64,000 nt of DNA. Source: a virus. Taxonomy: Duplodnaviria > Caudoviricetes. Positions 1-46,937 of the stretch are shown here, piece by piece. The stretch is taken from positions 64,001 to 128,000 of IMG/VR virus record IMGVR_UViG_3300029288_000056. One strand, given 5' to 3'. The notes under the pieces were generated by a model. That model had not been told where the DNA came from and made no database searches. It worked only from the letters and a program-made list of their open reading frames with translations. How positions within the stretch are numbered: the stretch's first letter is position 1; every line of letters begins with the position of its first letter. Position numbers and translations under genes: made by a program.

Positions 1-641
1 ATGTTCATGCTCCCCATTCCTTCACAGGCTTTGTCAAATATATACATCAGGTCCTCATCGGACATATCGTCAATTTCGGGGATATCTCCCGTATCAATCT
101 GCTCGTGGATAACCATTCTAATCGTTGCTGCGTTTAAAAACGTATTAAGTTTACTCATTTTTCTCACATCCTTATTTGCTGCCATTTTTTCATAACGTCC
201 CTTTGCGTCATTAAGCTGTTGTTCGGTAAACATGGGGGTCTTGAGACTGTAGGAATAATAGACGGCGGGACTCATATCCTTCCAATCATAACCTTTCCTG
301 CTTGGTAAGCGGGTGTGTTGTATGTTTGGATCGTTGAAGAACTTCTCCCAAAGACCCTGTGCCTCATCTGAAGTTGTCGAGGAGACATCTGATGCAATCC
401 TCCCGAATACCTGCATTGCGATAAGGTACGCGAGTGCTCCGTAGCCGTGCACCCCGTAACCGCCCTGCACCGTCCAATAACCACCTTTGTGCCACAGAGT
501 AACACGGGCAGCCCAATCTTCGCCACGCTCATGGATGCCGGGAGCGTAAAGATAAATCCTTTTCCATGAGCCCGAAGAACCTGCGTTATCGATATACAGG
601 CCCACATCCTCAATGCGGGCCATACTTGCGTCTAGTCTCAA
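1..641 (-). CDS. GNAT-like effector fused via the tag peptide to a second, acidic domain; runs off the left edge; missing from ORF track
   Basis: Manual translation from TTG at 641: MRLDASMARIEDVGLY...HGYGALAYLIAMQVFGRIASDVSSTTSDEAQGLWEKFFNDP...KMSKLNTFLNAATIRM; no stop before position 1. Confidence 0.85.
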   Translation of the reverse strand, partial: MRLDASMARIEDVGLYIDNAGSSGSWKRIYLYAPGIHERGEDWAARVTLWHKGGYWTVQGGYGVHGYGALAYLIAMQVFGRIASDVSSTTSDEAQGLWEKFFNDPNIQHTRLPSRKGYDWKDMSPAVYYSYSLKTPMFTEQQLNDAKGRYEKMAANKDVRKMSKLNTFLNAATIRMVIHEQIDTGDIPEIDDMSDEDLMYIFDKACEGMGSMN

Positions 642-1399
642 AACTTCCACCCCGATTCTAGGAGATCCTTTTGTAGTTGAGTGAAGCTTCTTAAAATACC
701 AACGAAAGTAGATCGTAGTTCGTCGGACACGTTCTTGTGGATAGTCTCCAAAGTCAGCGCACAAGTCATCACGAAGCTAGCAAAGACTGAGGTGAATTCA
801 TTCATATTAAACTCTACGTCAACTCCGACATCGAACTCGCTAATGGCCTTCCTGTACAGTAGTTCTATCGCAGTGAATTGGCTCTTTAGATTCTCATAGT
901 TACCACTGCTGGCTAGTTCGTTAAAACCGTTAATTATTGGCGGGCCGAAAGACTCAATAATGATCTTGGCGGTCTCTAGTTTGTCGAGATTTTCGGTCGG
1001 TGACGATTCTACCGTTTTGTCACCTGCACTCCATCCTAAGTCTACAACTTCTTGTCTGAAGGCGACGAAGTCTCCCATTTTACGCATTAACGAATGAGTC
1101 GCTGTAGTATCGGGAATCTGATTAAAGATACTCACGCATTTAGTCATCATCTCGGCGAAGTCTTCGTTAAACTGTCGACTGTTGAACTCTACGTCCACAT
1201 TAACTCTAAGGTCTTGGAGAGCGGCCTGATAACTTTGTTCTGCGGATTCTATTTGTGGCAACAATCCGTTAAACCCACTGTTGGCCACTTCATGTAAAGC
1301 CTCAAAGGTCGGCGGCATGTACTTCTCTAGAATCTCGGCCATCTTCATTATCTTGTCCGCGTTTTGTGCGGCAGTCAGAAAGTCTGTTAGTTTACTCAT
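638..1399 (-). CDS. Tagged helical protein with an internal two-fold repeat
   Basis: N-terminal MSKLTDFLTAA; both ~115-aa halves share PP...E.A.SG...VDVEFN...GW. Confidence 0.75.
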   Translation of the reverse strand: MSKLTDFLTAAQNADKIMKMAEILEKYMPPTFEALHEVANSGFNGLLPQIESAEQSYQAALQDLRVNVDVEFNSRQFNEDFAEMMTKCVSIFNQIPDTTATHSLMRKMGDFVAFRQEVVDLGWSAGDKTVESSPTENLDKLETAKIIIESFGPPIINGFNELASSGNYENLKSQFTAIELLYRKAISEFDVGVDVEFNMNEFTSVFASFVMTCALTLETIHKNVSDELRSTFVGILRSFTQLQKDLLESGWKF

Positions 1400-1878
1400 T
1401 TTACTCCTAAAAGTTTTTCTATTGTTTGTCTTGTCTGTGGGTGAAGTTGTAACTTTGGACCGTGAACCTCATACCACCTCTTTGTGTTTGGCGTCCCTTG
1501 TACTCTACCTGCGCCTATCCAGTCTGCTACCATTTCCTTACATACGTTGAGCGGCATTTCGACTGTACTACAGGTCGGTCCGTTCTCGTCTTCGTCCAAC
1601 GGTATGATCCAATACTGCCAGTGGTGATCATTGCGCTTCTGATGTAAGAACCAAGCATAATCGAAATTTGGATCTATAAGTGTGTCTTCACTCTTGTAAT
1701 AACCGGTTGCCCCCCTCTTTACGTCGTTAAAGAAGTGCCTCGCATAAGGAATGAATTCGCTGGGGCGAAACTTAGAAAGATCGTGTGTGATTCCGCGCCA
1801 CCAAATGCCTAACCTACAGCAAGCAAGAAATACGAACCACTTGTGTTTTAAAATATACTTCAAATTCTTTAGGTACAT
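1396..1878 (-). CDS. DUF5662-like HD-type protein (untagged)
   Basis: HKWFV...HDLSKF...HQKRNDHHWQYW...EMVADWIGAG; start moved to the ATG after GGAGG. Confidence 0.75.
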   Translation of the reverse strand: MYLKNLKYILKHKWFVFLACCRLGIWWRGITHDLSKFRPSEFIPYARHFFNDVKRGATGYYKSEDTLIDPNFDYAWFLHQKRNDHHWQYWIIPLDEDENGPTCSTVEMPLNVCKEMVADWIGAGRVQGTPNTKRWYEVHGPKLQLHPQTRQTIEKLLGVK

Positions 1879-1879
1879 T

Positions 1880-3034
1880 CTACCCTCCTGCGTACTTATA
1901 TTCAAAAAATTCAGTGGCCATATCGCTCATGAAAGTCTTCACGCCAGCACCATAATTTACTTTTTTTAGAATAATCCCTATCTTTTCAAGGGCCTGATTG
2001 CTTAAGCTATACATTGGCGCAGTGTTGATGATATTTTGATTAGTGGTATAGTAATAGTTAACACACTCACTACCTATATCTTCACCACGATCATGCGCTT
2101 GAATAACGGGGTTAAGCTTTTGACTGTCTTTTAAGAAGTGTTGCCAAACATTCAACGCGTCTTCATCTGTCTCGCCATCCATGTCTGAGGCTAGTCCCTT
2201 TCCTTTTGCTGTGGCGTCTTGCATTACAATGATGTAAAGGCTGGGACCCAATTTCTTTTTAGCGGCCGACTCTTCGACGGTATAGAACTTAGGCTTCCGC
2301 TCTATATTAAGAACGGCGCCGATTGTGTCTTGAAAATAACTTATGAAACCGTTATCCGTCTCAAACTCGTCGTCGGCTCGGTTAAGAACATCCTGAGCGT
2401 CGTATAGTATGAAGGTCTGGCTATAATCATCGTCCGGCCCGGTGTAAAGGCCTAACCCCTGCGGATTAGCCATCTTAGCTTCTAGACGGTTATAAGACAA
2501 ATAAGACATAGATGCTTTAAAACGAGGGACATATCGTTCATCAAAGAAACCAAAGCCAACATCGACCAAATCTTTATTGCTGATAGTTTTAACATCATTT
2601 ACTAAGGCTTGGCTGATTGAGATAACCTGTTGTTTCGCAGCATAAGCATAAGAGAGATAATCCCGGTCACTGTCTCTTATTTTAATAAGATTGAGAGGGC
2701 CATTACCATCTACGTTGTCATCGTAGAATCTCTTCCAAACTCTTTGCGCGGCGTCACTAGGCCAGTATGATGGAGCAAGCCCAACCGCTCCGGAGTCTTG
2801 AATAGCTATCATATATATAGAAGGGCCAAAGTCGTACTCCGCCCCTCCATCATCCACCATCCAGAATGTTTTATTATCATCATTCGTTACCTTAGATGTA
2901 CTGACAAAACCACGCACAGAATCAACAAGAAATTTAGATATCATCGTATCATAGAGAATGTATTGTCTTTCCGATCCATGTTTAACGATTCGTAAAGCCA
3001 GTTTGCCTATGGACTTGAAATACGCGTTTAGCAT
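1880..3034 (-). CDS. Tandem double GNAT-like protein
   Basis: Two copies of GP.lY.I.mQD...GLA.....s..A..VW..F; short leader MLNA. Confidence 0.7.
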   Translation of the reverse strand: MLNAYFKSIGKLALRIVKHGSERQYILYDTMISKFLVDSVRGFVSTSKVTNDDNKTFWMVDDGGAEYDFGPSIYMIAIQDSGAVGLAPSYWPSDAAQRVWKRFYDDNVDGNGPLNLIKIRDSDRDYLSYAYAAKQQVISISQALVNDVKTISNKDLVDVGFGFFDERYVPRFKASMSYLSYNRLEAKMANPQGLGLYTGPDDDYSQTFILYDAQDVLNRADDEFETDNGFISYFQDTIGAVLNIERKPKFYTVEESAAKKKLGPSLYIIVMQDATAKGKGLASDMDGETDEDALNVWQHFLKDSQKLNPVIQAHDRGEDIGSECVNYYYTTNQNIINTAPMYSLSNQALEKIGIILKKVNYGAGVKTFMSDMATEFFEYKYAGG

Positions 3035-3972
3035 TTAATCACCTTTACTTTTGGAACAATCCCTAATATGTATGCAATATCCATTCGGGTGTTTCCACTC
3101 ATAACTCTAAACTGACCTTTTATGTCTAAGATCAACGGATAGGGAAGTGCAACACCAATCTTCATCTTATTTACCAAGTCGTCAACATCGCGCGGATGCC
3201 TGTAGTTAGAGGTTAGATCTTTGAGTTCATCTAATGTGCGGCAGCGGCTGCGATAACTTGTTTGTGAGTCTAAAGACTCGATCCAATCTACAACCGTTGC
3301 GGACTTTACTTGTTGTTTAAATTCGTCAAAGCCTTTAAACAGATCACCGAAGGCCGGTTGAACATGAGGTAGGTACTCCCAATCCCATTCTTGGCGGATT
3401 TGCTCGTCAGTGAGATCGCACCAATTAGATTGCGCAGCTCGCAGAAACATAGAGAGTTTATTTGCCGTTTTTTGCGTATTATATGGATTATTCATCCAAT
3501 CCCTTCTTCTGACCCAACTACTAATTATATTATAATCTGAGCCAATAAAATCACGAGGAATTTCATGGCATGCTATCATTTTAATAGGGACAAACAGTTC
3601 ACCATCAGTACCAACATATTTACTTTCTATTGAATTTAAAAACCTATCCCCTACAGGAATACCCTCAAACACTTGAATAAAACCCATTGAGTAGTTTAGG
3701 GAAAATAACATGATCTTATCATCCACGGTTAAATCAGAGGATGGTGCGTCCATATTATAACCGAACAATGTCTTAGGTGGAGTTGGGAGTTGCCAGCCAT
3801 GATCTGTCTCTACCAATAAGTCAGCAATATCACCAAAGGCTAGTTCAGCTTCTTCTTTGGTTTTAAAAACATTAAATCCCCAAGGACCCGCTTCCCCGCC
3901 TAACTCCTCTTCCCAATCATAGTATGATTGTTCATCGGGGATGGGGTCTATGTCACAACGGATAAAAATCAT
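3028..3972 (-). CDS. RxD-SYYD family domain + tag + ParB/Srx-like domain
   Basis: MIFIRCDIDPIPDEQSYYD; ANKLSMFLRAA linker; PLIL...VMSGNTRM. Confidence 0.7.
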   Translation of the reverse strand: MIFIRCDIDPIPDEQSYYDWEEELGGEAGPWGFNVFKTKEEAELAFGDIADLLVETDHGWQLPTPPKTLFGYNMDAPSSDLTVDDKIMLFSLNYSMGFIQVFEGIPVGDRFLNSIESKYVGTDGELFVPIKMIACHEIPRDFIGSDYNIISSWVRRRDWMNNPYNTQKTANKLSMFLRAAQSNWCDLTDEQIRQEWDWEYLPHVQPAFGDLFKGFDEFKQQVKSATVVDWIESLDSQTSYRSRCRTLDELKDLTSNYRHPRDVDDLVNKMKIGVALPYPLILDIKGQFRVMSGNTRMDIAYILGIVPKVKVIKC

Positions 3973-4547
3973 TCTATTCCTCTTAAAAACGCGCTGAGTT
4001 TGTTGGCTGATAATTGCAAGTTATACACATGCCCCCAAACCAATTGACATTTATAATCTCCCGGATATAAGATATATTCCAATTCACTGCTACCAATTCC
4101 CTCTGAATTATCGATCCTCTCACACAAATGCATATGTTGCAGTTCTTCTTTAAACTCTTCGTATAAGGCACCCACATTAACAGCGATCTTGGATGGATCT
4201 ATAATCGTCTTAATAATACATCCGTTTCCATCACTATCATCCACAAAAACCGCTGCCACTGTTTGTTCTTCTGTCCATGAAGTAAATCTATCGTCGTGGT
4301 ACGTTAAAGTTGTATCTCCCGCTCTAATCCATCCACCAGAAGTTAAGTTTTCGTGTATATATTCTTTACTTAATTTTGGTGCGGTTAGGGAAATATTTGA
4401 CTCCCACGTAGTTAATCCTCTATATAGACTTACATCACTAGTCAGCGTAAATCTCTTAGACAACTCAATAAGCTCCGGACTTATCTTGTACTCTATACCC
4501 TCTACCCAACGATAGAGAGATTCTAATGCGCTATTGGAGTCTATCAT
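3969..4547 (-). CDS. R-S-E class ADP-ribosyltransferase-like protein with C-terminal tag
   Basis: LYRG...FTSWT...ELEYILYPG; ends SANKLSAFLRGIE. Confidence 0.7.
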   Translation of the reverse strand: MIDSNSALESLYRWVEGIEYKISPELIELSKRFTLTSDVSLYRGLTTWESNISLTAPKLSKEYIHENLTSGGWIRAGDTTLTYHDDRFTSWTEEQTVAAVFVDDSDGNGCIIKTIIDPSKIAVNVGALYEEFKEELQHMHLCERIDNSEGIGSSELEYILYPGDYKCQLVWGHVYNLQLSANKLSAFLRGIE

Positions 4548-6420
4548 AATTATCACCTAAAAGAAATAGTCTCAGTTTTTCGGCCGCTAATTGGTCTTTG
4601 AGTGGATCTACTATGGATTGTATATACACTTTTAGGCCGTTTTGAATATAGTCAACCAATTCTTGTAGTGTTGAAAACCGTTCTTTCTTTTCTGCTAATT
4701 GTTTACCCCGACCGATATTAGAGTCCACATTCACTTCTAGATTATTTTCAACGAACACCTGAATATTGGGATACCATCTATCATGTGCAAGAGGTGAATT
4801 TACAAAGCCTAGCGCGAATCCGGGGGTCTTATTCCAATTCCGCTCAAGCTTACAATTAAACTGCTGTGCGAGGCTCTGGGCGGTCTCTTTAACGATCTTA
4901 CTAAGATCCACTTCGTTAGTCCAGTTGCCCATTATATCCACTAGCTCAACAGGATAACTACCGGGTTTTAATATGTATTCATCTTGATCAAACTGTAAAT
5001 AAGCTCTAACCGGAGCCGGTAGCTTTCCAATTGGGACCGCAATCATTTCGGGAGACACAGTTGTTTTAAATAACAGTCCTAAAGACCCCTCGTCTAAAAT
5101 TGCTCCTCCAAATCCACCCATAAACCTTCCCATAAACTCCTTGGCAACATTTTGGGAAGAAGACCAAGACTGGTACTTTCCCGTCTCATAGACTGAGCGC
5201 TCACCAACCGTTGGTGTTAGTTTAAACTTGCGTAAGATTTGTCTCATTTGGACTATATCAAAGCCGAGTCCACGGTAGAGTATCGTAGGAGATGTTGGTA
5301 GAAAGGGCTTAAAGTACTCAGAAACACGAGTATCTAACATTCTCCCTGCCGATTGATTATAGCGCTTAATCTCATCTAGTACCCATATTGGAATACTTTG
5401 GACTTCCGGAGAAAGAACGGTTTCCCAATCTCCTACAAACTTTTCTAGTTTGTAAGTTCCTTTACTATAAAGTGCACTGATCAAATACTTGTCTTGAGAG
5501 TCATTAAATAATTGCTGTGTTTCCTGAGGAAGGTCACAAAGCGGGCAACAAAGGTATTGAATAGGATGTGTGATCGTTGTGCTGTAGAGAACGCCCAAGT
5601 ACTTTCCTTGTGATATTCTTTGCCATCCGGCCATCGCCGCTTCTTCTGAAATGTACCAAACATCCCTATCGGGATTGTTGAGGAATGGCCATAATCGTTC
5701 CTCGGCATCTCCTATCTTATTGTTCTCTGTAAACTTTTTAGCTCTCTGAAATTCTTTAGGCTCTATATGATAAAGAGTCCGATCTTGAGTATAAGACATA
5801 AAATATTTGATAACTTCTTCGTCGTAAGGCTCAAAAAAACGTCTGTCGTTCCAATATTTCGCAGTGGACTTAAGCTTATCCTCGAAAGTCACGGTTTCGG
5901 CCTGCAAGAATCTAGTTAACGCCGCAGCCTTTTGTGTAAATGGATTTATTGAAAAAGTACCAGTTCTCGCCCAATCTATTAGAGCTGATGTTTTTAAAAA
6001 ATTATCAGGTATTTTGTAGCAGTACAACATTTTAATTGGCACAAACAGCTCGCCGTCTGTCATTATAGATTTATCTACGATTGAGAAGTAAAGTGAGTCA
6101 CCTACTGGGTATCCTTCCCAAACTTGTAGATAGCCACCCGGCTGAAAGTAGAAGTGTTCCATCGGTATATCAGCAACCCAACCAAATAAAGTATTTGGAG
6201 GCGTAGCTATTTGCCAACCCCTTTTTGTATGCACTATTAACTTTTCCAATAGCTCTGCGGTGGCTCTGGTCTTATTGGTAAAAGCCTCTATAAGCTCTTC
6301 TTTTGTTTCAAAATAATTAGCGGCGCTCCATAAACCCTCTTTACCTCCAATATAACTGGTCCAATCATAATAAGACTGTTTATCTGGTATAGGGTCTCTA
6401 TCGCTGCGTAAAAATATCAT
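4531..6420 (-). CDS. Multidomain effector: RxD-SYYD domain + tag + ART-like domain(s) + C-terminal tag
   Basis: MIFLRSDRDPIPDKQSYYD; AAALTRFLQA; LYRGL...QSWS...QDEYILKPG; AAEKLRLFLLG. Confidence 0.75.
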   Translation of the reverse strand: MIFLRSDRDPIPDKQSYYDWTSYIGGKEGLWSAANYFETKEELIEAFTNKTRATAELLEKLIVHTKRGWQIATPPNTLFGWVADIPMEHFYFQPGGYLQVWEGYPVGDSLYFSIVDKSIMTDGELFVPIKMLYCYKIPDNFLKTSALIDWARTGTFSINPFTQKAAALTRFLQAETVTFEDKLKSTAKYWNDRRFFEPYDEEVIKYFMSYTQDRTLYHIEPKEFQRAKKFTENNKIGDAEERLWPFLNNPDRDVWYISEEAAMAGWQRISQGKYLGVLYSTTITHPIQYLCCPLCDLPQETQQLFNDSQDKYLISALYSKGTYKLEKFVGDWETVLSPEVQSIPIWVLDEIKRYNQSAGRMLDTRVSEYFKPFLPTSPTILYRGLGFDIVQMRQILRKFKLTPTVGERSVYETGKYQSWSSSQNVAKEFMGRFMGGFGGAILDEGSLGLLFKTTVSPEMIAVPIGKLPAPVRAYLQFDQDEYILKPGSYPVELVDIMGNWTNEVDLSKIVKETAQSLAQQFNCKLERNWNKTPGFALGFVNSPLAHDRWYPNIQVFVENNLEVNVDSNIGRGKQLAEKKERFSTLQELVDYIQNGLKVYIQSIVDPLKDQLAAEKLRLFLLGDNYDRLQ

Positions 6421-6421
6421 T

Positions 6422-7471
6422 TCAACTCCATAAATCATTTAACAGTTTTGTCGCATCTGCCCAGTCGCTATTTATTAACTTCCTAGCAAATGATTGAACG
6501 CTCATCTTAGTCTTACTAAGATGTGCCAAAAAATCATTAACATTAGGGTCGTAATGATGGGAGGCTACTGCTAGCTCAATCTGCCCAGCTATATCTCTTG
6601 CGACTGCGTCAACCATACCTTCCACGCTTTCCCGATTAGGTCCTCCGAATAATACAGAATGTAATATCTCATGCAGCAAAGCATATGACTCGCCGTTATC
6701 ATCTAGATCCTTCAATTTGATGTCATCAGTTACACAATTGTAAACACCTTTGGTCTCTAGATCCAGCCCCTCCTTATTTAGAACACTCCCCCATTTATCA
6801 GTGTTATAAATAGTCGTTTTTACATACTCAACTGATTTGCCTAAATATTGGGACACAACACCTATAAGGTATTGCATGGTGGGGCAAGTCTTTGGGACCA
6901 CTTGTTTCCCTTTAGAAACAAAGTCTGCTAACAAGAATCTTGTGAGTGATGCGGCTTTTTGTGTGAACGGATTCACTGACCACTCCTTATTATTGTACCA
7001 TTGTTCCATCGCTGCAAAACTATAGTCCCAAATATTGGCAATAATCTTATAGCAGTAAAGCATCTTGACCGGAATGAATAGATCTCCGTCTGTAAAGATG
7101 TTGTGGCTCTTAGTTAATATCTTCCCGTATATATCTCCAACGGGTACACCTTCCCAAATTTGTAGGTAGTTATTAGCGGATATAATATCGAAATCTATTA
7201 GATTAAAGCTTTCATCTGTATTGTACCCAAATAATGTCTTTGGTGGAGTGGCAAGTTGCCATCCTCTCTCGGTCTCCATAATCATTTGTTTTGCAATGGC
7301 CAATGGAACCTCATTAGAATAAAGAAAGTGTATAATTTCTATTTCCGTCTTAAAGAAATTATGAGAGTCATATAGCCCCTCCCCGCTATTTCTCCCACCA
7401 AGATAGGGGTGCCAATCATAATATGACTGCTTATCTGGAGTTTTGTCACGGTCTCCGCGTAAGAATTTCAT
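6422..7471 (-). CDS. RxD-SYYD domain + tag + zincin-like metallopeptidase
   Basis: QSYYD; AASLTRFLLA; HEILH followed by EGMVDAVA. Confidence 0.75.
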   Translation of the reverse strand: MKFLRGDRDKTPDKQSYYDWHPYLGGRNSGEGLYDSHNFFKTEIEIIHFLYSNEVPLAIAKQMIMETERGWQLATPPKTLFGYNTDESFNLIDFDIISANNYLQIWEGVPVGDIYGKILTKSHNIFTDGDLFIPVKMLYCYKIIANIWDYSFAAMEQWYNNKEWSVNPFTQKAASLTRFLLADFVSKGKQVVPKTCPTMQYLIGVVSQYLGKSVEYVKTTIYNTDKWGSVLNKEGLDLETKGVYNCVTDDIKLKDLDDNGESYALLHEILHSVLFGGPNRESVEGMVDAVARDIAGQIELAVASHHYDPNVNDFLAHLSKTKMSVQSFARKLINSDWADATKLLNDLWS

Positions 7472-11590: not shown

Positions 11591-11742
11591 TATTTCTCCT
11601 GATTAGATTCGCCAAGTTTAAAGTATATTGGCTTGATAGATTCGCCATTCTCATCTTTATCACAATGACAAACCATTGGCATAAAAGGTATCATCTCTTT
11701 CATGTCTTTTACTCCACAGCACTTACAACATTTATCGTTCAT
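11590..11742 (-). CDS. 50-aa Cys-containing protein
   Basis: MNDKCCKCCGVK...; start and stop overlap the neighbours. Confidence 0.5.
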   Translation of the reverse strand: MNDKCCKCCGVKDMKEMIPFMPMVCHCDKDENGESIKPIYFKLGESNQEK

Positions 11743-17901: not shown

Positions 17902-17920
17902 TTACGATCACCTCAGAATC

Positions 17921-17950: not shown

Positions 17951-17954
17951 GTTT

Positions 17955-28171: not shown

Positions 28172-28175
28172 AGTC

Positions 28176-34038: not shown

Positions 34039-34047
34039 GTTATCCTT

Positions 34048-39142: not shown

Positions 39143-39629
39143 TCCACTCCTTATACCTTGCGATTGCGTCATCAATCTGTTGTTGCGTGAAGAACGGTGT
39201 CTTCATCCAATAACGGTATTTAACCGCTCGGGTGTGATGATCCATACCTCTTGACCAACCTACCCGTCTCTCTTCGATTGGTTCATGCGCAATCCGTGGA
39301 TCATTGTAGAACCGTTTCCAAAGGTCTTGCGCTGAACCTGACGTGGTTGCGTCTTCATCTGAGGCAAGTGAACCGCAGATCTGCATCGCAATTAGATAGC
39401 AGAGAGCCCCATAGCCGCCTTCAGGGCCCCAACCATCTTCTACGGTCCAGTAATTATCCTGAAGACGAACACCCGTCATGCCATTTGGATCTCTAGTTTT
39501 TACTCGTCTCTGAGTAGTGTATATTTCTATATATTTGTAGTTAGTTTCGTTCCCGTCGCCGTTTTTCACGGCTACACTCTCAATAGATGGTAGTCCTGCG
39601 TTCAAAAGGAACTCGGTTAATACGCTCAT
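39135..39629 (-). CDS. Tagged GNAT-like protein
   Basis: MSVLTEFLLNA; GYGALCYLIAMQ. Confidence 0.75.
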   Translation of the reverse strand: MSVLTEFLLNAGLPSIESVAVKNGDGNETNYKYIEIYTTQRRVKTRDPNGMTGVRLQDNYWTVEDGWGPEGGYGALCYLIAMQICGSLASDEDATTSGSAQDLWKRFYNDPRIAHEPIEERRVGWSRGMDHHTRAVKYRYWMKTPFFTQQQIDDAIARYKEWSE

Positions 39630-39637
39630 GTACCCTC

Positions 39638-40072
39638 CTAGTGTAGTCCGGTGCCATCACATATACTGCAGTCTTCCGACTCGTCGTCGGTGAGCCCGGA
39701 TCCGAAACATGCTGGGCAAAGTCTAGCTAAAGTGTGTTTCTCACTCGCCAATGTGTCTCCCCATTTATGAAATGTATCGTTCATGTCCATCTGTACAAGA
39801 TCGCCATCGTCGGTTTGTCTCCAAACCTTGGCCGTCCTGTTACCGGAGCGCATGATACAATCCCAAATCGCATCCTCAACTGCTGGATAGCTTTCTTCAA
39901 TTGCTAGAATGACGTATTCCTGTGTCTCAGGGTTCCAAGTTATTACCTGTTTACCATCTACAAACACGTCGTTCCCGTCGTACACATAGTCGCCCGGTTC
40001 TGGGACTGGTTCTGCTAATAGGTCTGACGTCTCGTCAGTATAAGCAGCGTTTAAAAAGTCTGTAAGTCTCAT
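39638..40072 (-). CDS. Tagged acidic protein with a C-terminal CxxCxGxG zinc motif
   Basis: MRLTDFLNA; CPACFGSG...CSICDGTG. Confidence 0.7.
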   Translation of the reverse strand: MRLTDFLNAAYTDETSDLLAEPVPEPGDYVYDGNDVFVDGKQVITWNPETQEYVILAIEESYPAVEDAIWDCIMRSGNRTAKVWRQTDDGDLVQMDMNDTFHKWGDTLASEKHTLARLCPACFGSGLTDDESEDCSICDGTGLH

Positions 40073-40090
40073 AATATTCCTCCTTTTGTG

Positions 40091-40891
40091 TTAAATTCCT
40101 GTGCGCCAAAGACTGTCGTCAGCGTTCCAAGGAGATCCGTAAGGGTCCTCTATGTAGTCGTCATCGTCAAAAACTCTAATAGTTGTATCAACCGGTTTCG
40201 TCGGATCACCTGTCGGTAGATCGGATATCCTACCGCGGGCAAAACTACCCATCGGTCTTACAAACTCATCAGCCGTCCCATTCTGTCGCGCTTCATATAA
40301 GACTTGCGCGCTCTTTATTTCGTCTAACGGAATGAGTGGATGAAGCGCAGTTAGTTTATAGAGCATAGGATCGTCTTTGGCTAGCTCAAGTCTTTGAGCA
40401 TCCTTAGCTCTTTCTTGAATAAGTTCCCGTTTAACTTCGGGGCTTTTGAACATTCTCAAGAATGCGTTCTTTGCAGGAAAAGCGAGTGCGTTGTCGCTGA
40501 TGTCCATTGCTATTCCACCCTTATTCTGATAGAGCGTCAGTGCGACCCTAATTACGATGTCCACGTTTCCCGTGGCCCAGCCGATAATGAAGTGGTCCCC
40601 TTCTCGCGCTACTGCGATACCATCCTCTATTCTGCCTGAGCCGGCAGTTAGTAAGATGTACTCACCGATTCCAAAGTCTTTAAAGTGTAGGGCGAGTTCA
40701 CCCCAAGTACCGAGCCCCTCACCTTTTGTTACTGGTGTTGACGGAGGTAGAGCTAGTGCGCCTGTTGGTTGTATCTTATAATCAGGAAACTTTGCGGCCG
40801 TTAGAAACTCGGTCAGTAGGGACGGCTTTACTTCGCTGTACAACTCCGCCGGTATGACGGATTTCCTTGCTACGTATTCTAAACTTCTCAT
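40091..40891 (-). CDS. Tagged, degenerate GNAT-like protein
   Basis: SLLTEFLTAA near the N-terminus; GGIAMD...AKNAFLRMF resembles the family C-half. Confidence 0.55.
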   Translation of the reverse strand: MRSLEYVARKSVIPAELYSEVKPSLLTEFLTAAKFPDYKIQPTGALALPPSTPVTKGEGLGTWGELALHFKDFGIGEYILLTAGSGRIEDGIAVAREGDHFIIGWATGNVDIVIRVALTLYQNKGGIAMDISDNALAFPAKNAFLRMFKSPEVKRELIQERAKDAQRLELAKDDPMLYKLTALHPLIPLDEIKSAQVLYEARQNGTADEFVRPMGSFARGRISDLPTGDPTKPVDTTIRVFDDDDYIEDPYGSPWNADDSLWRTGI

Positions 40892-40899: not shown

Positions 40900-41562
40900 T
40901 TAATGATAAAAAAAGTTCCGCGTTGCTGAACCAAATTTAACTATTATTTCACTCTCGGTATACCACTGTTTCAAGTAGTCAACGACCTGTTGGTGTAAGG
41001 CCTTCTCTGCCGAAACGTCTATTTCTGGTCTTTTGACCTTATACGCAACACTCAACCAAGGGCCTCCATCAATATAGCCGTCCCCGCCGCATCGTTCGCA
41101 ATCTTCTTCGTCTCCGTCACAATCAGGACAAACCGTTTGTGGTGCGTCATATCTTTCTTCTCTTATTATATTTGAGTTAGGGTCTTGGCTATCTATAAGG
41201 AATCTGCGCCAAACTTCTGATGCTTCATCTGATGTTCTACCTGTTATATCAGAGGCTAACCCCTTCCCTCTCGCGGTACAATCTTGCATTGCCACAATAT
41301 AAAGGGTAGGTCCGTAACCTTGCTCAGCATAAGAGTATTCTATTGTATCCTCTTGTCTGTCCTCTTGATTGTCTGAATAAACAATAAGCATCGCTATCCC
41401 ATTGTTCTGAAGGATAGGCTCAAGATTTGCATGAGCCTTAAAAGCAGAATCGTAAGTGCCCGCCAAAATTGTGTCGGGATCGTACACAAAATAGAAGAAC
41501 TCCTCTCCACCGTGGTAGGTGAATAGGGCGAGTCCTGTTATATCGCGTCGGCCTGCTTGCAT
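40900..41562 (-). CDS. GNAT-like protein with an inserted zinc finger
   Basis: GYGPTLYIVAMQD...GLASD; CPDCDG...CERCGGDG. Confidence 0.75.
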   Translation of the reverse strand: MQAGRRDITGLALFTYHGGEEFFYFVYDPDTILAGTYDSAFKAHANLEPILQNNGIAMLIVYSDNQEDRQEDTIEYSYAEQGYGPTLYIVAMQDCTARGKGLASDITGRTSDEASEVWRRFLIDSQDPNSNIIREERYDAPQTVCPDCDGDEEDCERCGGDGYIDGGPWLSVAYKVKRPEIDVSAEKALHQQVVDYLKQWYTESEIIVKFGSATRNFFYH

Positions 41563-42168
41563 TTATCCGCCAGTTGAAAAGAATTGGTTCATTGCGTCTA
41601 ATAAAGCGCCTCTTATTTCGTCTTCGTCAAACCATTTCTTCAAATGAACGAAGACTTGTTCATTAAGAGTAGCTTCTGCGTCGACCTCAATGGTTGGGGT
41701 CTTGATCTTGTAATAGTGGTACTGCGGCTGTTCACTGTAAGGGTCTATAGTACCCCTACCGTCACAGTTGTCTCGATCAAAAGCCGTTATATTAGAGGTT
41801 GGGTCTTCACTGTCTTCAAGAAAACGGTACCAAACTCTCATAGCTTCACCTGAGGTCTGTCCTCTCTCGTCTGAGGCTAGGCCCTTACCCCTCGCCGTCG
41901 AGTCTTGCATTGCGAGGATATACATGGTCGGTCCGTAACCTTCTTTTGAGCGCGACAGCTTTATGGAATCGTAATTTCCACGATCAGTTGTGATTAGCAT
42001 ACCGATTCCGGCATGCATAAATGTGTTGCGCAAATCATTCCTAGAAAGACCGTAGAAGTTCTCACCAAAAAGGGAGGCGGATTCATAAGCATAATAGTAA
42101 TAGTAACCGCCCGTTGCGTAGTAGAAGTAGGCGAAACCCTTTATCTCTTGGCGTACCGCGTTTAACAT
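41563..42168 (-). CDS. GNAT-like protein
   Basis: MLNA leader; GYGPTMYILAMQD...GLASD. Confidence 0.75.
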   Translation of the reverse strand: MLNAVRQEIKGFAYFYYATGGYYYYYAYESASLFGENFYGLSRNDLRNTFMHAGIGMLITTDRGNYDSIKLSRSKEGYGPTMYILAMQDSTARGKGLASDERGQTSGEAMRVWYRFLEDSEDPTSNITAFDRDNCDGRGTIDPYSEQPQYHYYKIKTPTIEVDAEATLNEQVFVHLKKWFDEDEIRGALLDAMNQFFSTGG

Positions 42169-42713
42169 TAATAGAATCTCTCCGTCACATCATTAAACGT
42201 ATCTGTTATCTCTTCAAGTGTAAACTGTTGACGTAGAAATTCCACTACTTTATTGTTATTTTTAATCTCAGTAGATACATCAACAATTTGTCTAGACACC
42301 ATAAATGCAGCCGATGCCGATGGGGCTTTAATTATACCAGAACCAGCCTTTTGACTATCTCTTTCAAAATGATCCCAAACTGATTGAGCTTCTTCCGACG
42401 TTTCTCCGTCGTCATCAGAGGTAAGCCCAACCCCTCGTTTAGTGGCTTCTTGCATAGCAACGATATATAGAGTGGGCCCATAACCCTCTACCTCAGATCT
42501 TGCCCACTCTACAGACTCGTAGCCACCATGATCTTCTACACCTAACATTGCGCATCCAACTTCACTAAGTGCATCATAAAGGGTAGATGTGTCACCAATA
42601 TCCTCAAGATTTAAATTTAATATTGGGTCTGGGTCGTATATATAATACCAAAAGTCATAGGTTTCTCCTATAAAAAGAGCCATACCCCTTATACTTCTTC
42701 TAGCTGCTTGCAT
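42168..42713 (-). CDS. GNAT-like protein
   Basis: MQAA leader; GYGPTLYIVAMQE...GLTSD. Confidence 0.75.
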   Translation of the reverse strand: MQAARRSIRGMALFIGETYDFWYYIYDPDPILNLNLEDIGDTSTLYDALSEVGCAMLGVEDHGGYESVEWARSEVEGYGPTLYIVAMQEATKRGVGLTSDDDGETSEEAQSVWDHFERDSQKAGSGIIKAPSASAAFMVSRQIVDVSTEIKNNNKVVEFLRQQFTLEEITDTFNDVTERFY

Positions 42714-42714
42714 A

Positions 42715-43332
42715 TTACTCCTTTAAAAAATTACTCAAAGATGCTACCCTTCTTGGGCCACTGTAACTACGGCTAAACATTATATCCGCGAGAGACCACA
42801 AGAGATCCTCGTAGTTTAAGCTGGTACGTATAATGTAAGGCCCGTCTGTACCGTGGCAATTGGATATGTCGGTATTACCTTTCGCAGTCTGGTGGTTTGC
42901 GTAAGCTTGCGCGGTGTCAACCAGTTGGCGGTCGGTTTTAAACACGTAGTTAGCGCTCACAAAGACATTCTCTCTTCTTATATCCCTTTCCTTTGTGATA
43001 CCAGAATTAGGGTCGTTTGAGATTTCGTAGAACTTGTCCCAAACCCTCACCGCGGAAGGTGACGGTTGGCCGTCAGATTCGATACCCTCTGGGCTTTCTT
43101 GCATTGCAATCATATACATCGTAGGTCCATAGCCTTCAGCGGCGACAGGACCGTGGATATTGTTGTCTTCCACTTCAATCTTCCCAAAAACCGGCCGTTT
43201 GATGTGAGACCTGAAGTCTCGCGCGTTGATGATGTCTTGGATGATTGTGTGATCGTACAATACATACAAAGATCCTGACGAAAAGAACGGTCGCTTACAC
43301 AGGGCGAGATTAGATATATTGGTTTGTAACAT
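42715..43332 (-). CDS. GNAT-like protein with C-terminal tag
   Basis: GYGPTMYMIAMQ...SPSAVRVWDKFY; ends VASLSNFLKE. Confidence 0.75.
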   Translation of the reverse strand: MLQTNISNLALCKRPFFSSGSLYVLYDHTIIQDIINARDFRSHIKRPVFGKIEVEDNNIHGPVAAEGYGPTMYMIAMQESPEGIESDGQPSPSAVRVWDKFYEISNDPNSGITKERDIRRENVFVSANYVFKTDRQLVDTAQAYANHQTAKGNTDISNCHGTDGPYIIRTSLNYEDLLWSLADIMFSRSYSGPRRVASLSNFLKE

Positions 43333-43975
43333 TTCTCCACCATTTTACAAATTCGTCTCTTGATTGCCAATGGTTCGGTCGGTTAACCAACCCAACCCCA
43401 TCGGGTATATCCTCTAGTCTATCCATCAACCCTTTGTCGGCAAAGTGAACCGATTTGCCGCGGCCAACTGATAAAGAGAGATACAAATCGTCGTTGAAGA
43501 TCGCTTCACTGCGATACATCGGATTCTGTGCAATGAGACCAAGACTGACCTTGGCGAGCAGGTCCTTAGAAAGCATTACAAAGCGACCTTTGATTATCGG
43601 CACAAAACCCCACGCATCTAGTGCGGTGGAGTAAGGTTTGTCTCCAATAGAAAGGTTGCGGCCAAAGGCGCCAGTAAGAACGTCAGGGTGTCGTTGGTGC
43701 ACTTCAAACGCGTCCTTAAGAAAGTCGTCGTCCTTAGGTAAGAGGTCGTCATCCATAAATACGATAGTCTGGTACTTGGAGAAGGGCGCTAAAACGATTC
43801 GCGCTAGACAACCCATATTCCAAGTTGAGTAGACGGTCTGATCTCCTTCAACCAAGTCGTCCTGTCGGTTATTGATGACTATTATCTCATTCTCTATAGT
43901 TTGCTGTCGCAGTTTGTCAATCAGTTTGCGCAACTGTGCGGGCCGACTATAGTTGAGAAGTATTATCGATATCAT
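43310..43975 (-). CDS. GT2-like glycosyltransferase (untagged)
   Basis: ISIILLNYSR; EIIVINN; VFMDDD; DDLYLS. Confidence 0.8.
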   Translation of the reverse strand: MISIILLNYSRPAQLRKLIDKLRQQTIENEIIVINNRQDDLVEGDQTVYSTWNMGCLARIVLAPFSKYQTIVFMDDDLLPKDDDFLKDAFEVHQRHPDVLTGAFGRNLSIGDKPYSTALDAWGFVPIIKGRFVMLSKDLLAKVSLGLIAQNPMYRSEAIFNDDLYLSLSVGRGKSVHFADKGLMDRLEDIPDGVGLVNRPNHWQSRDEFVKWWRNVTNQYI

Positions 43976-46937
43976 TTAATAAGAACCTCGTTAGTTTACT
44001 TGCTGCAATTGTCTCAGGAAGACCGTACTTCGTTCTAAAGTCTCGACAGGATCGTATTGCACTGTCAGATTGCATTTGTCCCATAAGCTCTAGAATCTTA
44101 GGAGTGCCGGCGAGGCGGATAACCTCAGGAATCTTCAGTTGATCTTCTTTTGTAGAATTAGGCTGTAAAGCCCACTTAGCGAATTGGTAGAATGTAAACC
44201 GGTTATAAACTATCAGCTTTGCCAAGGTCTGTGCGTTTAAATGGGAATAGATTATATATACTTTAGTGTCACCCATTGAACTTACACCGCCCGTATTCCA
44301 AATTCTGTCTGCGATATAGGGGGCGCTCCAATCTCGTACTGTCCAGATTTGCGGATTCATTTCTCCCGCTCTGATCCAGTCGTCTATACTAAGCGACTCC
44401 CACGGCAATGAGACTAGAGTCTCAGGATTGTTCAGGGCGATCTCTCGGGCAATTCGCTGACCGGTACTACCAATGTCTGTGCCCGGTGGTATATCCTTCA
44501 TGTACTCTTCCGCAATCGGCAAGAACAACGCTCTCGCGTCCGAATTGTACTCGAGAATGTAGAAGAATTGGTACCAACGATCGGGTTTCTCCATCAACTT
44601 CGGTTTAACTCGCGCAAAGAACAGATTCCAGTCTATACCAAAGGCCTTAAGGATGTTAACCCAACTAGAACTCTCCAACCTATCCATCACGTCATTATAT
44701 ATTCGTTCATCTACCGTGCCTATCATCCCGATATGAGTGATGACGAACAGATCTTTTATATCCATGGACAATTGTGCCCAATTTGCGGTCGAAAGTACAG
44801 TCTTCAACTTAGTCACCCTTGCGTCATCTGGGGCTATAGGGCCACTGGTGTTAACGAGTATATTAAGTATTGTAGAAGGACTGAAGGTGTCTGCAATTCT
44901 CGGATTCAATGCCGTTACTCGTGCTAACCAGCTTGGGTCAAGCGCGCCTTCTGGAATAGTAACGCCCGCCAACATAAGGTTGGCATAACTTGCGCCCGAA
45001 CGGCCCGCCATCATATATAGGATGTCTTGCGGAACCGTCTTGAGTATGTCGATCGTGGTTTGGGGTAACGTAGCGAAAGTCTCGGGTATAACCATTGTGA
45101 ATAGTATCTTAATCCAATTAGGGTACTGAGTAATGACGTCTTTAACGTCCTGACCATCGTACTCTACCTCGGTTCGTCTGTCACCCCTCGACACACTCCT
45201 AAATGCGTCCGCGTAGTTAGCGAGGACGGGGTGAGTCTTCATAAGTGTGAGGTACTTCTTAAGCAAGTAGTACTTGGCGGGTGTAACCGTCTTACCCTCG
45301 AGCTTCGGAATAAGGTACTGACCCAACTTACGACCGCTGACTACGAGGGTGAAGATTTGATCACCGGTCAACTCAACGCCCTGTTGAGTTAATGAGGCCA
45401 TGAAGGTCGTAAACTGTGTCTTATTCTTAATCGCATTGTCGGCTGCGTATAGGAAGTCGTCCATTGTACCAGCCTGTTGAATACTGCTCATTACGCGATC
45501 CATCATTTGATACTTAAGGGCTATGCTTAAGACGTAAGAGGAAGGTATCCTTCCGTTAGAAACCAAGTAGTCGAAGAGCTCTTTGGCTAAGTCGGCAATA
45601 TCGGGTAAGGAGAACAGTTGGTCAAAGGTTCGGTTCCAATCGCTGATTCGGTTACGACCAATGGTTTCAAAGGCCGCGTTCTTATCTAAGAGGTTGGCCT
45701 GTACTAGGTATAAGATGTCCTTAGGCTCACTGACCAATATACCCAAGTAGTTGCGTAGCTCGCTATTCATACCTATCAATCTTGTTATACGATCAACCGT
45801 CATATTACTAATGATGAATGGGTATCCTGAGTTCTGAGCAAAGTCGATCATTGAAGGTTTACGTGCTAATAACGTATCTACTAGATCATCCTTACGATTT
45901 TGAATAGCCCATCTTACCAAATCTCTCTGTGCCCTCTCCTGCATTGAGTCAAAATAATTGATATCCATTCCTACAAGTAACCCTAGATCGTCTTTTGATA
46001 GGTTGTTATAATCGATTTGATCCTTAAAATAAGGATTCCCGCTAGTTAATTGCTGCACCATATAAGTCTGTGGAATCGTATAGTTTCCTACACCTTTTCG
46101 GTTAAGAATCTCCCATAGGAAGGCGCCGCGCTCTGGGGTAGAATATAAGAAAGAACCAATCGGTGTAGACGGATTCATATTGTCTATGCACAAGGGCATC
46201 CATTTCCTCATATCCGCGGTGATTAGTTCGTTCCACATACCCGGTCCTAACAGCTTTATGATCTCAGGGGTTGGTTCAATACTTCCATCTATTAGACCGG
46301 CGAGAGTCGCAGGGTCGATGTATGTAACGGTGTAACTCGTATTCCCCAAGGTCCAATGCGCTCTACGTTCAACATTACTATAGGCACGACTGAAGAGAGC
46401 CCCAGCCGCGTCCTTAAGTTTGTCGTTGGTTATATCGGGGTGTTCCGCTTGAAGGCTTTGCCCAAGAGCGAGGGCGGCGTCCATCGGTTCAATGATGGTA
46501 GTAATGTAGTAGACGTAGTCTTTAGGGTTGTCAGCCTGCATTGTGTCGTCGGTAACGCGTTGAGTCGCTTTAACGGGGGATCCGGGCTGCCGAGAGTCCA
46601 AGAGGAATCTCGCATAGACCGGTTCAGCGTCACCGGAGGTTGAACCAGAAGCATCTGATGCAATCCCCTTCCCGTCTTGCCACGCCCTTTGAGCACCACA
46701 GACATAGGCCGTTGGCCCGATTTCGAGCCGTTTGTTTCCGGCCGAGTTCTGCACTGTATAGTAGTCGCCGCGTTCGTTGTACGACAACCGTACGTACCCG
46801 ACTGCATCTATACCGAAACGCTCCTCAGCGTTGTACCTCCATATAATAACGTAGATACTTCCAGCTAGACTCTGTCCAATGAACGACAGGGCAAATTCGT
46901 TACCTAGCGATCTTCTCGCTGCACTTAAACGATTCAT
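43947..46937 (-). CDS. 996-aa protein: N-terminal GNAT-like domain, long helical body, C-terminal tag
   Basis: IGPTAY...GIASDASGSTSGDAEPVYARF; ends AASKLTRFLLN. Confidence 0.75.
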   Translation of the reverse strand: MNRLSAARRSLGNEFALSFIGQSLAGSIYVIIWRYNAEERFGIDAVGYVRLSYNERGDYYTVQNSAGNKRLEIGPTAYVCGAQRAWQDGKGIASDASGSTSGDAEPVYARFLLDSRQPGSPVKATQRVTDDTMQADNPKDYVYYITTIIEPMDAALALGQSLQAEHPDITNDKLKDAAGALFSRAYSNVERRAHWTLGNTSYTVTYIDPATLAGLIDGSIEPTPEIIKLLGPGMWNELITADMRKWMPLCIDNMNPSTPIGSFLYSTPERGAFLWEILNRKGVGNYTIPQTYMVQQLTSGNPYFKDQIDYNNLSKDDLGLLVGMDINYFDSMQERAQRDLVRWAIQNRKDDLVDTLLARKPSMIDFAQNSGYPFIISNMTVDRITRLIGMNSELRNYLGILVSEPKDILYLVQANLLDKNAAFETIGRNRISDWNRTFDQLFSLPDIADLAKELFDYLVSNGRIPSSYVLSIALKYQMMDRVMSSIQQAGTMDDFLYAADNAIKNKTQFTTFMASLTQQGVELTGDQIFTLVVSGRKLGQYLIPKLEGKTVTPAKYYLLKKYLTLMKTHPVLANYADAFRSVSRGDRRTEVEYDGQDVKDVITQYPNWIKILFTMVIPETFATLPQTTIDILKTVPQDILYMMAGRSGASYANLMLAGVTIPEGALDPSWLARVTALNPRIADTFSPSTILNILVNTSGPIAPDDARVTKLKTVLSTANWAQLSMDIKDLFVITHIGMIGTVDERIYNDVMDRLESSSWVNILKAFGIDWNLFFARVKPKLMEKPDRWYQFFYILEYNSDARALFLPIAEEYMKDIPPGTDIGSTGQRIAREIALNNPETLVSLPWESLSIDDWIRAGEMNPQIWTVRDWSAPYIADRIWNTGGVSSMGDTKVYIIYSHLNAQTLAKLIVYNRFTFYQFAKWALQPNSTKEDQLKIPEVIRLAGTPKILELMGQMQSDSAIRSCRDFRTKYGLPETIAASKLTRFLLNDIDNTSQL

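Follow-up and report, generated by a model that had tools for sequence, protein, structure and literature searches.

Why should one peptide of about ten residues recur in dozens of proteins encoded side by side in a phage genome? Within the window, the whole 64,000-nucleotide stretch analysed here from the 297-kb genome of an uncultured jumbo phage, we counted 46 copies of the tag S/N-K-L-T-x-F-L-x-A in 44 of 58 open reading frames (ORFs) of at least 45 aa, all on the minus strand, in close agreement with the original prediction of about 47 copies in 44 of some 58 genes. A position-matrix scan of window positions 1-47,000, with a matrix built from the tag copies themselves, recovers 42 copies at 10 bits or more, 38 of them at 18 bits or more, again all on the minus strand; four weaker variants were added, at the gene starts 15,930, 15,312 and 20,816 and as a C-terminal copy at ~42,738. 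As first claimed, there is no copy right of 47 kb, nor any on the other strand of the window. Among the 111 array proteins there are 45 occurrences of the bare core L-[TSRNQ]-x-F-[LI], against 3.6 on average and 9 at most in 200 residue shuffles of these proteins; it is found 13 times in the remaining 449 proteins of the genome and never in the 40 genes right of 47 kb. Leu4, Phe7 and Leu8 are invariant in the tag, position 10 is mostly Ala, Gly or Asn and rarely Glu, and the sequence that follows the tag has no conserved cleavage motif. The information content of third codon positions is about 0 bits, with Leu encoded by TTR and CTN and Ser by AGY and TCN, and no conserved DNA flanks the tag. 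Because the third positions are free, it is the peptide that is conserved, as synonymous codon variation had already indicated.

The tag occupies the three kinds of position described for it at the outset. N-terminal copies (22, plus three weak ones) have their own start codon, mostly with a Shine-Dalgarno-like sequence; 12 internal copies have 137-316 aa ahead and 135-464 aa behind; after the six C-terminal copies (plus one weak) the protein stops within 1-7 aa; and two copies are ambiguous in position. Members of one and the same cargo family can be separate N-tagged genes or can follow other modules within a protein. With one exception, proteins with a C-terminal copy have no second copy, a pattern more in keeping with a label than with a cleavage site alone. 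For a tagged GNAT-like protein (gene 34,048-34,674), the AF2 model has a pLDDT of 88 with residues 1-9 below 50, the tag being predicted as a flexible extension on a confidently folded domain. In the model of a protein composed of an N-domain, the tag and a zincin (gene 6,422-7,471), the tag region begins a long helix running into the zincin domain, and here the tag may be partly structural.

The cargo had been described as unrelated enzymes, which stands for families and not for single domains. Many of the domains are paralogous by blastp grouping, with about 15 GNAT-like ones (family A), 7 zincin peptidases (family B), 6 ART-like ones (family C) and 4 of unknown kind; the tag is also borne by singletons (Zeta kinase, Nudix, SWIM-like). 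Once stripped of the tag, all pairs of families score below 1% probability in profile-profile comparison, except N/N2 at 8.9%, and at least four mutually unrelated families, as well as singletons, are preceded by the tag. HExxH...E is invariant in the seven zincin copies and H-Y-E motifs are present in the ART-like domains. Of the domains originally called, the GNAT-like fold, zincin, ART-like, Nudix, Zeta_toxin and, weakly, SWIM/zinc ribbon were recovered, and a ParB-like domain was not found in the window. In family A, five to six paralogues lack the tag. Array proteins without a tag also include, as previously reported, methyltransferases, the glycosyltransferase and homing-type nucleases, enzymes that would act in the producing cell. 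Likewise, T4 packages Alt but is not known to package its paralogues ModA and ModB.

In window coordinates, and with every feature on the minus strand, the array is headed by a boundary element at 46957..46985, a -35-less TGATATAAT-type box and after it a terminator-like hairpin ending in T8, which together immediately precede the first array gene in transcription order. A similar T-rich extended -10 box is also seen ahead of the head genes, at genome 20,901. The first gene (43947..46937, 996 aa), for which no Pfam or PHROG family match was found, has an untagged GNAT-like family A domain near its N-terminus and a C-terminal tag at 43,968-44,006. It is followed by an untagged glycosyltransferase (GT2; 43310..43975) and by four family A paralogues without N-terminal tag (40900..43332), which start where the post-tag sequence of their tagged paralogues starts and the first of which (42,715-43,332) has a weak tag at its C-terminal end. 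Five tagged genes (37717..40891) bear a tag near the N-terminus at 40,790-40,828, N-terminal tags at 40,040-40,078, 39,594-39,632, 39,107-39,145 and 38,176-38,214, and an internal one at 38,609-38,647 separating two tandem family A domains. A 528-aa protein (36134..37720) combines two tandem family A domains, an internal tag (36,740-36,778) and a family B zincin, and a 311-aa protein (35202..36137) an N-terminal part (weak DUF3293), an internal tag (35,694-35,732) and a family A domain. Four consecutive N-tagged genes, including the modelled family A member, occupy 32372..35205 (tags 35,170-35,208, 34,639-34,677, 34,003-34,041 and 33,224-33,262). Beyond an untagged 1093-aa protein with an alpha-2-macroglobulin-family stretch (29101..32382), seven genes (26079..29101; three of family C and one of family A) display N-terminal tags at 29,066-29,104, 28,782-28,820, 28,136-28,174, 27,624-27,662 (weak), 27,217-27,255 and 26,508-26,546.

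An untagged island (23438..26092) encodes a methyltransferase, a NUMOD3/endonuclease-I-like nuclease, a 250-aa ORF and a DUF559-like ORF. The segment 18563..23436 contains two copies of a two-gene unit in which gene 1 consists of an N-domain and a C-terminal tag (22,104-22,142; 19,675-19,713) and gene 2 of an N2-domain, an internal tag (21,433-21,471; 19,070-19,108) and a zincin, the stop of gene 1 overlapping the ATG of gene 2; its single genes are one of family D (N-terminal tag 23,401-23,439) and the Zeta_toxin kinase (20,283-20,816, weak N-terminal tag). A sigma-70-type promoter (17902..17954, -35 at ~17,949) lies upstream of an untagged family A gene. The tagged genes at 12781..17286 have N-terminal tags at 17,254-17,292, 16,715-16,753, 15,426-15,464, 14,935-14,973 and 13,327-13,365, weak ones at the gene starts 15,930 and 15,312, and an internal tag (13,868-13,906) between an N-domain and a family A domain. 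A 329-aa protein (11739..12728) has its tag (12,204-12,242) between a Nudix domain and an ART-like family C domain, and 10010..11520 includes a weakly N-tagged gene (11,488-11,526) and one with an N-domain, an internal tag (10,385-10,423) and a family C domain. After an untagged methyltransferase (9308..9838), six genes form an N-domain series (3028..9044, with the modelled zincin protein) with internal tags at 7,978-8,016, 6,920-6,958, 5,893-5,931 and 3,430-3,468, and C-terminal tags at 8,544-8,582 (a zinc-ribbon/SWIM-like protein), 4,549-4,587 and 3,972-4,010, each terminated by a stop codon that overlaps the start of the following gene. At the left end of the window (1..1905), a tag at 123-161 follows a family A domain in an ORF that runs off the window, another is N-terminal (1,364-1,402), and a DUF5662 gene (1,396-1,905) has in place of the tag a variant of a second leader (M-K-Y-F-K-N type).

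The array of more than 47 kb recognised originally is real and is not confined to the window: it extends ~31 kb further left with eight more copies (genome 33,088-64,161), and an outlier copy lies at genome 243,983. On the same strand, it adjoins the genes for terminase, a Mu-type portal, a putative 215-aa protease (weak match to phrog_976, E 0.001), scaffold-like proteins and a lambda-E-type capsid protein. In this phage, gp23, an S77 protease and a T4 portal all went undetected, and no close relative of it was found. It had been proposed to look for the motif in scaffold, capsid, portal and protease; the portal, protease, scaffold-like and capsid proteins of this phage all lack the tag, so no shared propeptide logic is visible. 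About 48 consensus sigma-70-type promoters were located genome-wide, 45 at 121-296 kb and three in the 1-120 kb block, and the one at 17902..17954 is the only one in the window's array. From this paucity of early-type promoters, rather than from an identified late promoter class, we infer that the array is transcribed late.

Homologues from other phages relate the tag to known leaders. The HMMER profile of family A gathers 1,662 relatives, and 75 of the 106 short outside homologues contain, in their first 40 residues, a hydrophobic-x-Glu motif followed by A/K/G/S/M/T; the motif is 5.7 times denser in these 40 residues than in the rest of the protein, and the HMMER alignment pairs the tag with such a leader. 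For family C, 55 of 75 outside homologues have a leader, mostly of 9-10 residues, ending in hydrophobic-x-Glu, and nine match the full T4-like pattern. Some outside leaders are almost identical to the T4 capsid-targeting sequence (CTS) established by experiment, in which positions 4 and 7 are reported to matter for targeting and 8 and 10 for processing (PMC8442874, PMC9026906); Leu4, Phe7 and Leu8 of the tag coincide with three of these four. Three of the four contigs examined are T4-like, and in two of these the homologue lies amid head or neck genes, one between Portal_T4 and Peptidase_S77/Gp23 and another between the T4 gp13 and gp15 genes. The leader proper to each phage is shared by unrelated neighbours, namely an amidoligase in one T4-like contig and a protein without annotation in a second; a ParB_N protein shares the homologue's leader in a 296-kb contig of unknown type. 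In multi-domain outside homologues, a leader-like junction recurs before each internal domain, in parallel with the internal tags; the giant family A homologues include several GNAT domains.

Sequence comparison and analogy make it probable that the tag serves a head of non-T4 type as a junction for capsid targeting and processing. The capsid-addressing idea of the original prediction thus gains comparative support from the T4-type leaders on homologues and the head-gene setting, while no docking partner was found in the head module. The tag would be a short amphipathic peptide at the start of each cargo module that, late in infection, docks the module onto the scaffold or some other internal protein in the core of the prohead as it assembles, and it probably also marks the cut site of the head maturation protease. 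With 'tag + domain' as the unit, a gene cut just before the tag would give an N-terminal copy; without a cut the copy would be internal, the two- and three-module proteins acting as small polyproteins; and a cut just after the tag would leave a C-terminal copy as the sole label of an otherwise untagged upstream module. The T4 protease requires Glu at position 10, where the tag mostly has Ala, Gly or Asn, so a protease cutting here would have to differ in specificity.

Alternatively, the tag could be a processing site without addressing, cut by the head protease or by the seven zincins of the array, possibly after delivery. The tags do lie at module junctions, outside multi-domain homologues have cleavage-like junctions, the seven array zincins retain HExxH...E, and in the polyvalent proteins of phages and plasmids the zincin is the commonest domain and a proposed processor (PMC5512222). 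However, a cut in the six to seven proteins tagged solely at the extreme C-terminus would remove 1-7 residues and free nothing, ~25 proteins would shed just ~10 residues, no cleavage motif is conserved after the tag, and the equivalent T4 leader serves both targeting and processing (PMC9026906), all of which makes this explanation unlikely. We also regard as doubtful that the tag is a linear motif docking effectors on a hub outside the virion, such as a host or phage chaperone, the sliding clamp or polymerase, a degradation adaptor or the import route of a phage compartment. Position indifference and predicted disorder are typical of linear motifs, the head module yielded no partner, and the core L-x-x-F-L resembles clamp-binding and PIP-like motifs, but homologues in T4-like phages have, in the corresponding place, canonical capsid-targeting-type leaders that include protease sites, and the array adjoins head genes and is poor in early promoters. 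A functionless relic helix, spread passively by duplication, domain shuffling or gene conversion in a fast-growing array, is very improbable even though the array is largely made of tandem paralogues, as Leu4, Phe7 and Leu8 are kept across paralogues 25-45% identical while synonymous sites are randomised, families without detectable relation have the tag in common, and untagged paralogues exist.

The principle behind a capsid-targeting tag has described precedents in the T4 CTS, the P1 DarB signal and polyvalent proteins. The T4 CTS, found on the internal proteins IPI-IPIII and in Alt propeptides (Mullaney and Black 1996; reviewed in PMC9026906), is likewise a ~10-residue peptide common to otherwise unrelated proteins; its positions 4, 7 and 8 are hydrophobic or aromatic, as in the tag, and it too has an ART among its cargo. 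T4 Alt is also processed at its C-terminus, and outside homologues of two tagged families bear T4-type leaders at the same position. Here, in contrast, the portal is Mu-type, the capsid protein lambda-E-type and an S77 protease was not found, position 10 is rarely Glu, ~50 copies replace a handful and lie also between domains and at C-termini, and the function is a predicted one. With gp23, S77 protease and T4 portal undetected, the parallel is one of analogy and cargo homology, not of shared machinery. The polyvalent proteins known from phages and conjugative elements also combine unrelated effector domains (zincin commonest, ART and others) thought to be co-delivered with DNA, and giant family A homologues with several GNAT domains resemble them; processing at the junctions is proposed for them, and the parts of the survey used here describe no recurring junction peptide (Iyer et al. 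2017, PMC5512222). They form one giant chain, whereas the present phage has separate genes or two- to three-module proteins with one recurring peptide. In P1, an N-terminal 30-residue signal of DarB suffices to load this large anti-defence enzyme into the capsid (PMC9024508), but that signal is longer, serves a single cargo and works with stepwise helper proteins. In the giant phages SPN3US and phiKZ, with ~50 head proteins, ejection and inner-body proteins (>40 MDa of the former) are packaged along with the genome, and the prohead protease trims them (PMC7411985, PMC5694885); these belong to another phage lineage and share a protease cleavage motif, not an address peptide, but such dozens of enclosed proteins make the proposed cargo scale physically plausible. 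Taken together, ~50 tagged modules beside head genes and T4-type leaders at the same spot in relatives of two families indicate that the tag is most likely an address label of this phage's own, by which enzymes are loaded into the virion; GNAT-like acetyltransferases, ART-like enzymes, zincins, a Zeta-type kinase and a Nudix-ART protein would be packaged together with the DNA and ejected with it into the next cell.

A search by regular expression and then by position matrix located about 50 copies of the S/N-K-L-T-x-F-L-x-A tag genome-wide, all on the minus strand between genome positions 33,088 and 108,006, with the exception of one outlier at 243,983. In the window, 42 copies scoring at least 10 bits and 4 weaker ones make up a total of 46, spread over 44 of 58 ORFs; the 40 genes right of 47 kb have none. 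The array is larger than the original prediction states: leftwards it extends for a further 31 kb or so, with a lower density of tags. The bare core of the tag occurs 45 times in the array proteins, against a mean of 3.6 (maximum 9) upon shuffling, and 13 times in the rest of the proteome (70,000 residues). Leu4, Phe7, and Leu8 are invariant among 19 N-terminal copies, and position 10 is mainly Ala, Gly, Asn, or Ser, with Glu or Asp in a minority only. The third codon positions of the tag carry zero information, Leu and Ser codon families are both used interchangeably, and no conserved DNA flanks the tag. These observations bear out the earlier proposal that selection acts at the peptide level. 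Since third-position and flanking conservation are both absent, readings at the DNA level (recombination site, shufflon, promoter, or translation signal) could be ruled out. The sole strong tag outside the array is N-terminal in a helical protein of about 126 aa (locus L010:15600-16013 of the phage genome; genome 243,600-244,013), which also contains a second tag-like stretch; its gene precedes that for a Ro60-type RNA-binding protein by about 2 kb in the direction of transcription.

About 25 copies are protein-initial; each of these has a start codon to itself and, in most cases, a ribosome-binding site. Another 12 lie between modules, and six or seven are C-terminal, 1-7 residues ahead of a stop codon overlapping the ATG of the next gene. 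With one exception, proteins ending in a tag have no further copy. When the proteins were split at each tag and the resulting segments compared, 'tag + domain' emerged as the repeating unit, and one post-tag family can appear both alone, behind an N-terminal tag, and downstream of other modules. Internal tags are preceded by a 170-aa N-domain (8 copies), the related N2 domain, Nudix, or another cargo domain. The majority of the tagged proteins have a single module and the largest have 2-3; about 13 are multi-effector chains of at least two unrelated domains, for example Nudix + ART-like, N-domain + zincin, or two GNAT-like domains + zincin.

The GNAT-like family A comprises about 15 domain copies, partly in tandem. 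The predicted model of one member (pLDDT 88, pTM 0.86) retrieved with Foldseek nearly exclusively GNAT acetyltransferases, but the matches are weak (best E 7e-3, probability 0.97). The phage's own members have no Pfam GNAT match, Pfam and PHROGs matched neither family A nor its outside homologues, and a PDB sequence search with the family profile gave no match. The zincin family B (7 copies) has an invariant HExxH and downstream Glu, and its fold matches zincin peptidase catalytic domains with Z up to 9.2 and an rmsd of 4.2 Å over 154 residues. The six paralogues of the ART-like family C share a His-Gly-Thr motif, later aromatics, and a Glu-Cys-Trp block, all of them conserved and in part invariant; the His/Tyr/Glu blocks follow the same order as in H-Y-E ADP-ribosyltransferases, there is no Pfam match, and one copy sits behind a Nudix domain. 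Family D has 4 copies. For the N-domain, an Atlas search gave no informative match, and in fold searches with an N-domain + zincin protein the matches were taken up by the zincin domain. Tagged proteins also occur as singletons, among them a Zeta_toxin-type kinase and a zinc-ribbon/SWIM-like protein. Comparison of the tag-stripped family profiles with hhalign detected no relation among them, ruling out a single common ancestor for all cargo domains. The claim that the tag is shared by unrelated proteins is thus right for the families, which are mutually unrelated after tag removal, but many of the individual domains are paralogous copies.

Untagged genes of the array encode methyltransferases, a glycosyltransferase, homing-type nucleases, a 1093-aa A2M-domain protein, and 5-6 family A paralogues that start where the post-tag sequence of their tagged counterparts starts. 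The 1093-aa protein, with its alpha-2-macroglobulin-family stretch, is encoded mid-array (window 29,101-32,382), and the homing-type nucleases (NUMOD3 + endonuclease-I-like, DUF559) are inserted at window 24,016-26,092. The phage also has a second N-terminal leader, of the M-K-Y-F-K-N type, on about 17 genes at genome 33,879-55,444 (loci L002 and L003), with a few internal copies; a variant of it is found on the DUF5662 gene at window 1,396-1,905. Separately, a Nudix + ART-like protein (window 11,739-12,728) and the capsid protein (L001:16693-17742) have near-identical first nine residues, M-E-Q-L-x-x-E-F-I, which may reflect chance or a third leader type.

On the array's own strand, the head module follows immediately downstream, in the order terminase, 966-aa Mu-type portal, HNH gene, 215-aa protein, 143-aa ORF, two scaffold-like proteins, 140-aa protein, and lambda-E-type capsid protein. 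The portal was assigned to Portal_Mu, the capsid protein is Phage_cap_E-like, and the 215-aa protein weakly matches head maturation proteases; PDB sequence searches with the latter two gave no useful match. Pfam found no S77 protease gp21, gp22, or gp23 in the genome, but the search controls were equally silent, and tblastn with the protease, scaffold, and capsid protein of a T4-like contig gave no match in the phage. The phage has a head of non-T4 type. The tag is absent from all head proteins, and a complex prediction combining the tag alignment with the 341-aa and 153-aa scaffold-like proteins scored 0.21 against a mark of 0.32, which counts neither way. The portal (L002:1572-4472; genome 21,572-24,472) is extended at its C-terminus by about 540 aa, in which a Cys/His motif recalls MuF-type head proteins; this extended portal also contains the best tag-like stretch of any head protein, which scores only 0.4 bits. 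The HNH homing-type gene (L002:932-1603) is inserted between the portal and putative protease genes, and the two charged scaffold-like neighbours (L001:18184-19680; genome 18,184-19,680) have in common a segment, about 25 residues long, whose core reads A-E-N-I-I-P.

The virus record is a single one of 297,328 bp, of which the window covers bases 64,001-128,000; its estimated completeness is 94%, and the minus strand encodes about 500 of the 565 ORFs in the whole genome. A 12-kb query had no megablast match among cultured phages, IMG/VR pattern scans using family A and the portal found no relative, and the terminase matches solely remote Thermus, Meiothermus, and Tunturiibacter phages. Searched against 5.8 billion proteins, an N-domain + zincin protein matched itself alone, and the zincin family search returned the phage's own copies and no others. 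The sole matching contig (L018, 9.8 kb) is the same phage at 99.99% identity.

About 48 near-identical strong sigma-70-type promoters, all minus-sense, consist of an A-rich upstream stretch, GCTTGACTTTT, a spacer, and an extended -10. Of these, 45 fall in genome 121-296 kb and three in the 1-120 kb block of head genes and array. Those in the window lie at 17,902-17,954 (around 17,949; one of the three) and at 56,870-63,660. Just upstream of the first array gene, window 46,957-46,985 contains a terminator-like hairpin that has a T8 tail and overlaps a TGATATAAT extended -10 box lacking a -35. The head genes have a similar -35-less box ahead of them, at genome 20,901 (L002). Generic sigma-70 and terminator scans over 28-48 kb remained at chance level. 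As read from these signals, the promoter pattern would fit co-expression of the array and the structural genes.

A HMMER profile of family A yielded 1,662 hits among 1.84 billion representative proteins. In 75 of 106 short hits from other genomes, the first 40 residues include a hydrophobic-x-Glu with Ala, Lys, Met, or a comparable small residue after it, and this motif is 5.7 times as dense there as in the remaining protein. Homologues without a leader begin where the cut would fall in those with one, and HMMER aligned the phage's tag with one such outside leader. Outside homologues of family C behave similarly: in 55 of 75, hydrophobic-x-Glu closes a leader whose commonest length is 9-10 residues, and several leaders differ from the T4 capsid targeting sequence (CTS) at few positions. 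One outside family A homologue is placed between Portal_T4 and Peptidase_S77/Gp23, and another, on a contig that also has a Gp23 fragment, adjoins a non-homologous gene bearing the same leader. One family C homologue is flanked by T4 gp13 and gp15 genes, and a neighbouring amidoligase has the same leader. On a 296-kb contig of unknown type, one leader is common to ART-like, ParB_N, and other proteins. In outside multi-domain homologues, a leader-like junction recurs ahead of every internal domain. The homologue P0044, from a T4-like contig, had no tblastn match among cultured phages. In contigs of other large phages, T4-like (L014:9357-14923 and L016:10001-14503) or of unknown type (L017:4802-14340), a phage-specific CTS-like leader is present on unrelated neighbours (ART-like, GNAT-like, Amidoligase_2, ParB_N, and unknowns); these genes look like an unannotated, widespread cargo repertoire.

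The T4 CTS, whose sequence is given in PMC8442874, depends on residues 4 and 7 for targeting and on 8 and 10 for processing, and T4-related phages have varied proteins with CTS-like leaders (PMC9026906). As in T4, one short peptide is found here across otherwise unrelated proteins of one phage, and the invariant Leu4, Phe7, and Leu8 of the tag match T4 positions 4, 7, and 8, a correspondence by position only. In contrast, the T4 leader ends in the Leu/Ile-x-Glu motif of the prohead protease gp21 and the tag mostly does not, and the S77 gp21, gp22, and gp23 core was not found in this phage, with its Portal_Mu portal and Phage_cap_E-like capsid protein. Peptide-directed capsid loading is already known as a principle from T4 and from P1 DarB (PMC9024508). 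The set of domains seen here agrees with that of the polyvalent proteins (Iyer et al. 2017, PMC5512222), and so do the notion of multi-effector proteins that would be delivered and processed, chains of at least two unrelated effector domains and a zincin-like metallopeptidase as recurrent hub; however, those are giant single chains of up to 15 domains, whereas here there are 2-3 modules at most. In SPN3US, the capsid contains about 50 species of protein, with ejection proteins exceeding 40 MDa (PMC7411985, PMC5694885). New features are the scale, a different lineage of head, the Glu-less consensus, and the positional freedom, together with the apparent tie of T4-type leaders to GNAT-like and ART-like families that are widespread but unannotated.

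The most economical reading, which we regard as somewhat more likely than not, is that the tag is the local counterpart of the T4 capsid-targeting leader, fitted to another head. The tag would act as an address label and possibly also as a cleavage junction, in which case the two- and three-module proteins would be small polyproteins. In its full form, which we put forward tentatively at slightly below even chances, a peptide code in a non-T4 (Mu/lambda-type) head would load about 50-60 enzyme modules, encoded by roughly a quarter of the 297-kb genome, into the virion, with a label working at either end or between modules and the M-K-Y-F-K-N leader (about 17 genes) marking a second class; cargo families would cross phage lineages by swapping the local leader, T4-type in T4-like phages and the tag here. 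It is rather unlikely that the tag is instead a linear motif binding a hub outside the virion. We consider it similarly doubtful that the tag is purely a cleavage site, and the address label is preferred because C-terminal copies exist. That the tag is a passive relic is very improbable, as its conservation is strict across unrelated families, and the label is again preferred.

The comparative result is that T4-type leaders occur on GNAT-like and ART-like families which are common in metagenomic T4-like phages and which no annotated Pfam or PHROG family matches; it holds independently of the address-label reading. If the tag is an address label, peptide-based capsid loading would not be T4-specific but transferable, and an unrelated type of head would employ it at very large scale. 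The injected repertoire would then be readable from sequence, with acetyltransferase-like, ADP-ribosyltransferase-like, peptidase, and kinase modules presumably acting on the host within the first seconds of infection, and this compact, position-tolerant peptide would be useful for putting foreign proteins into phage heads.
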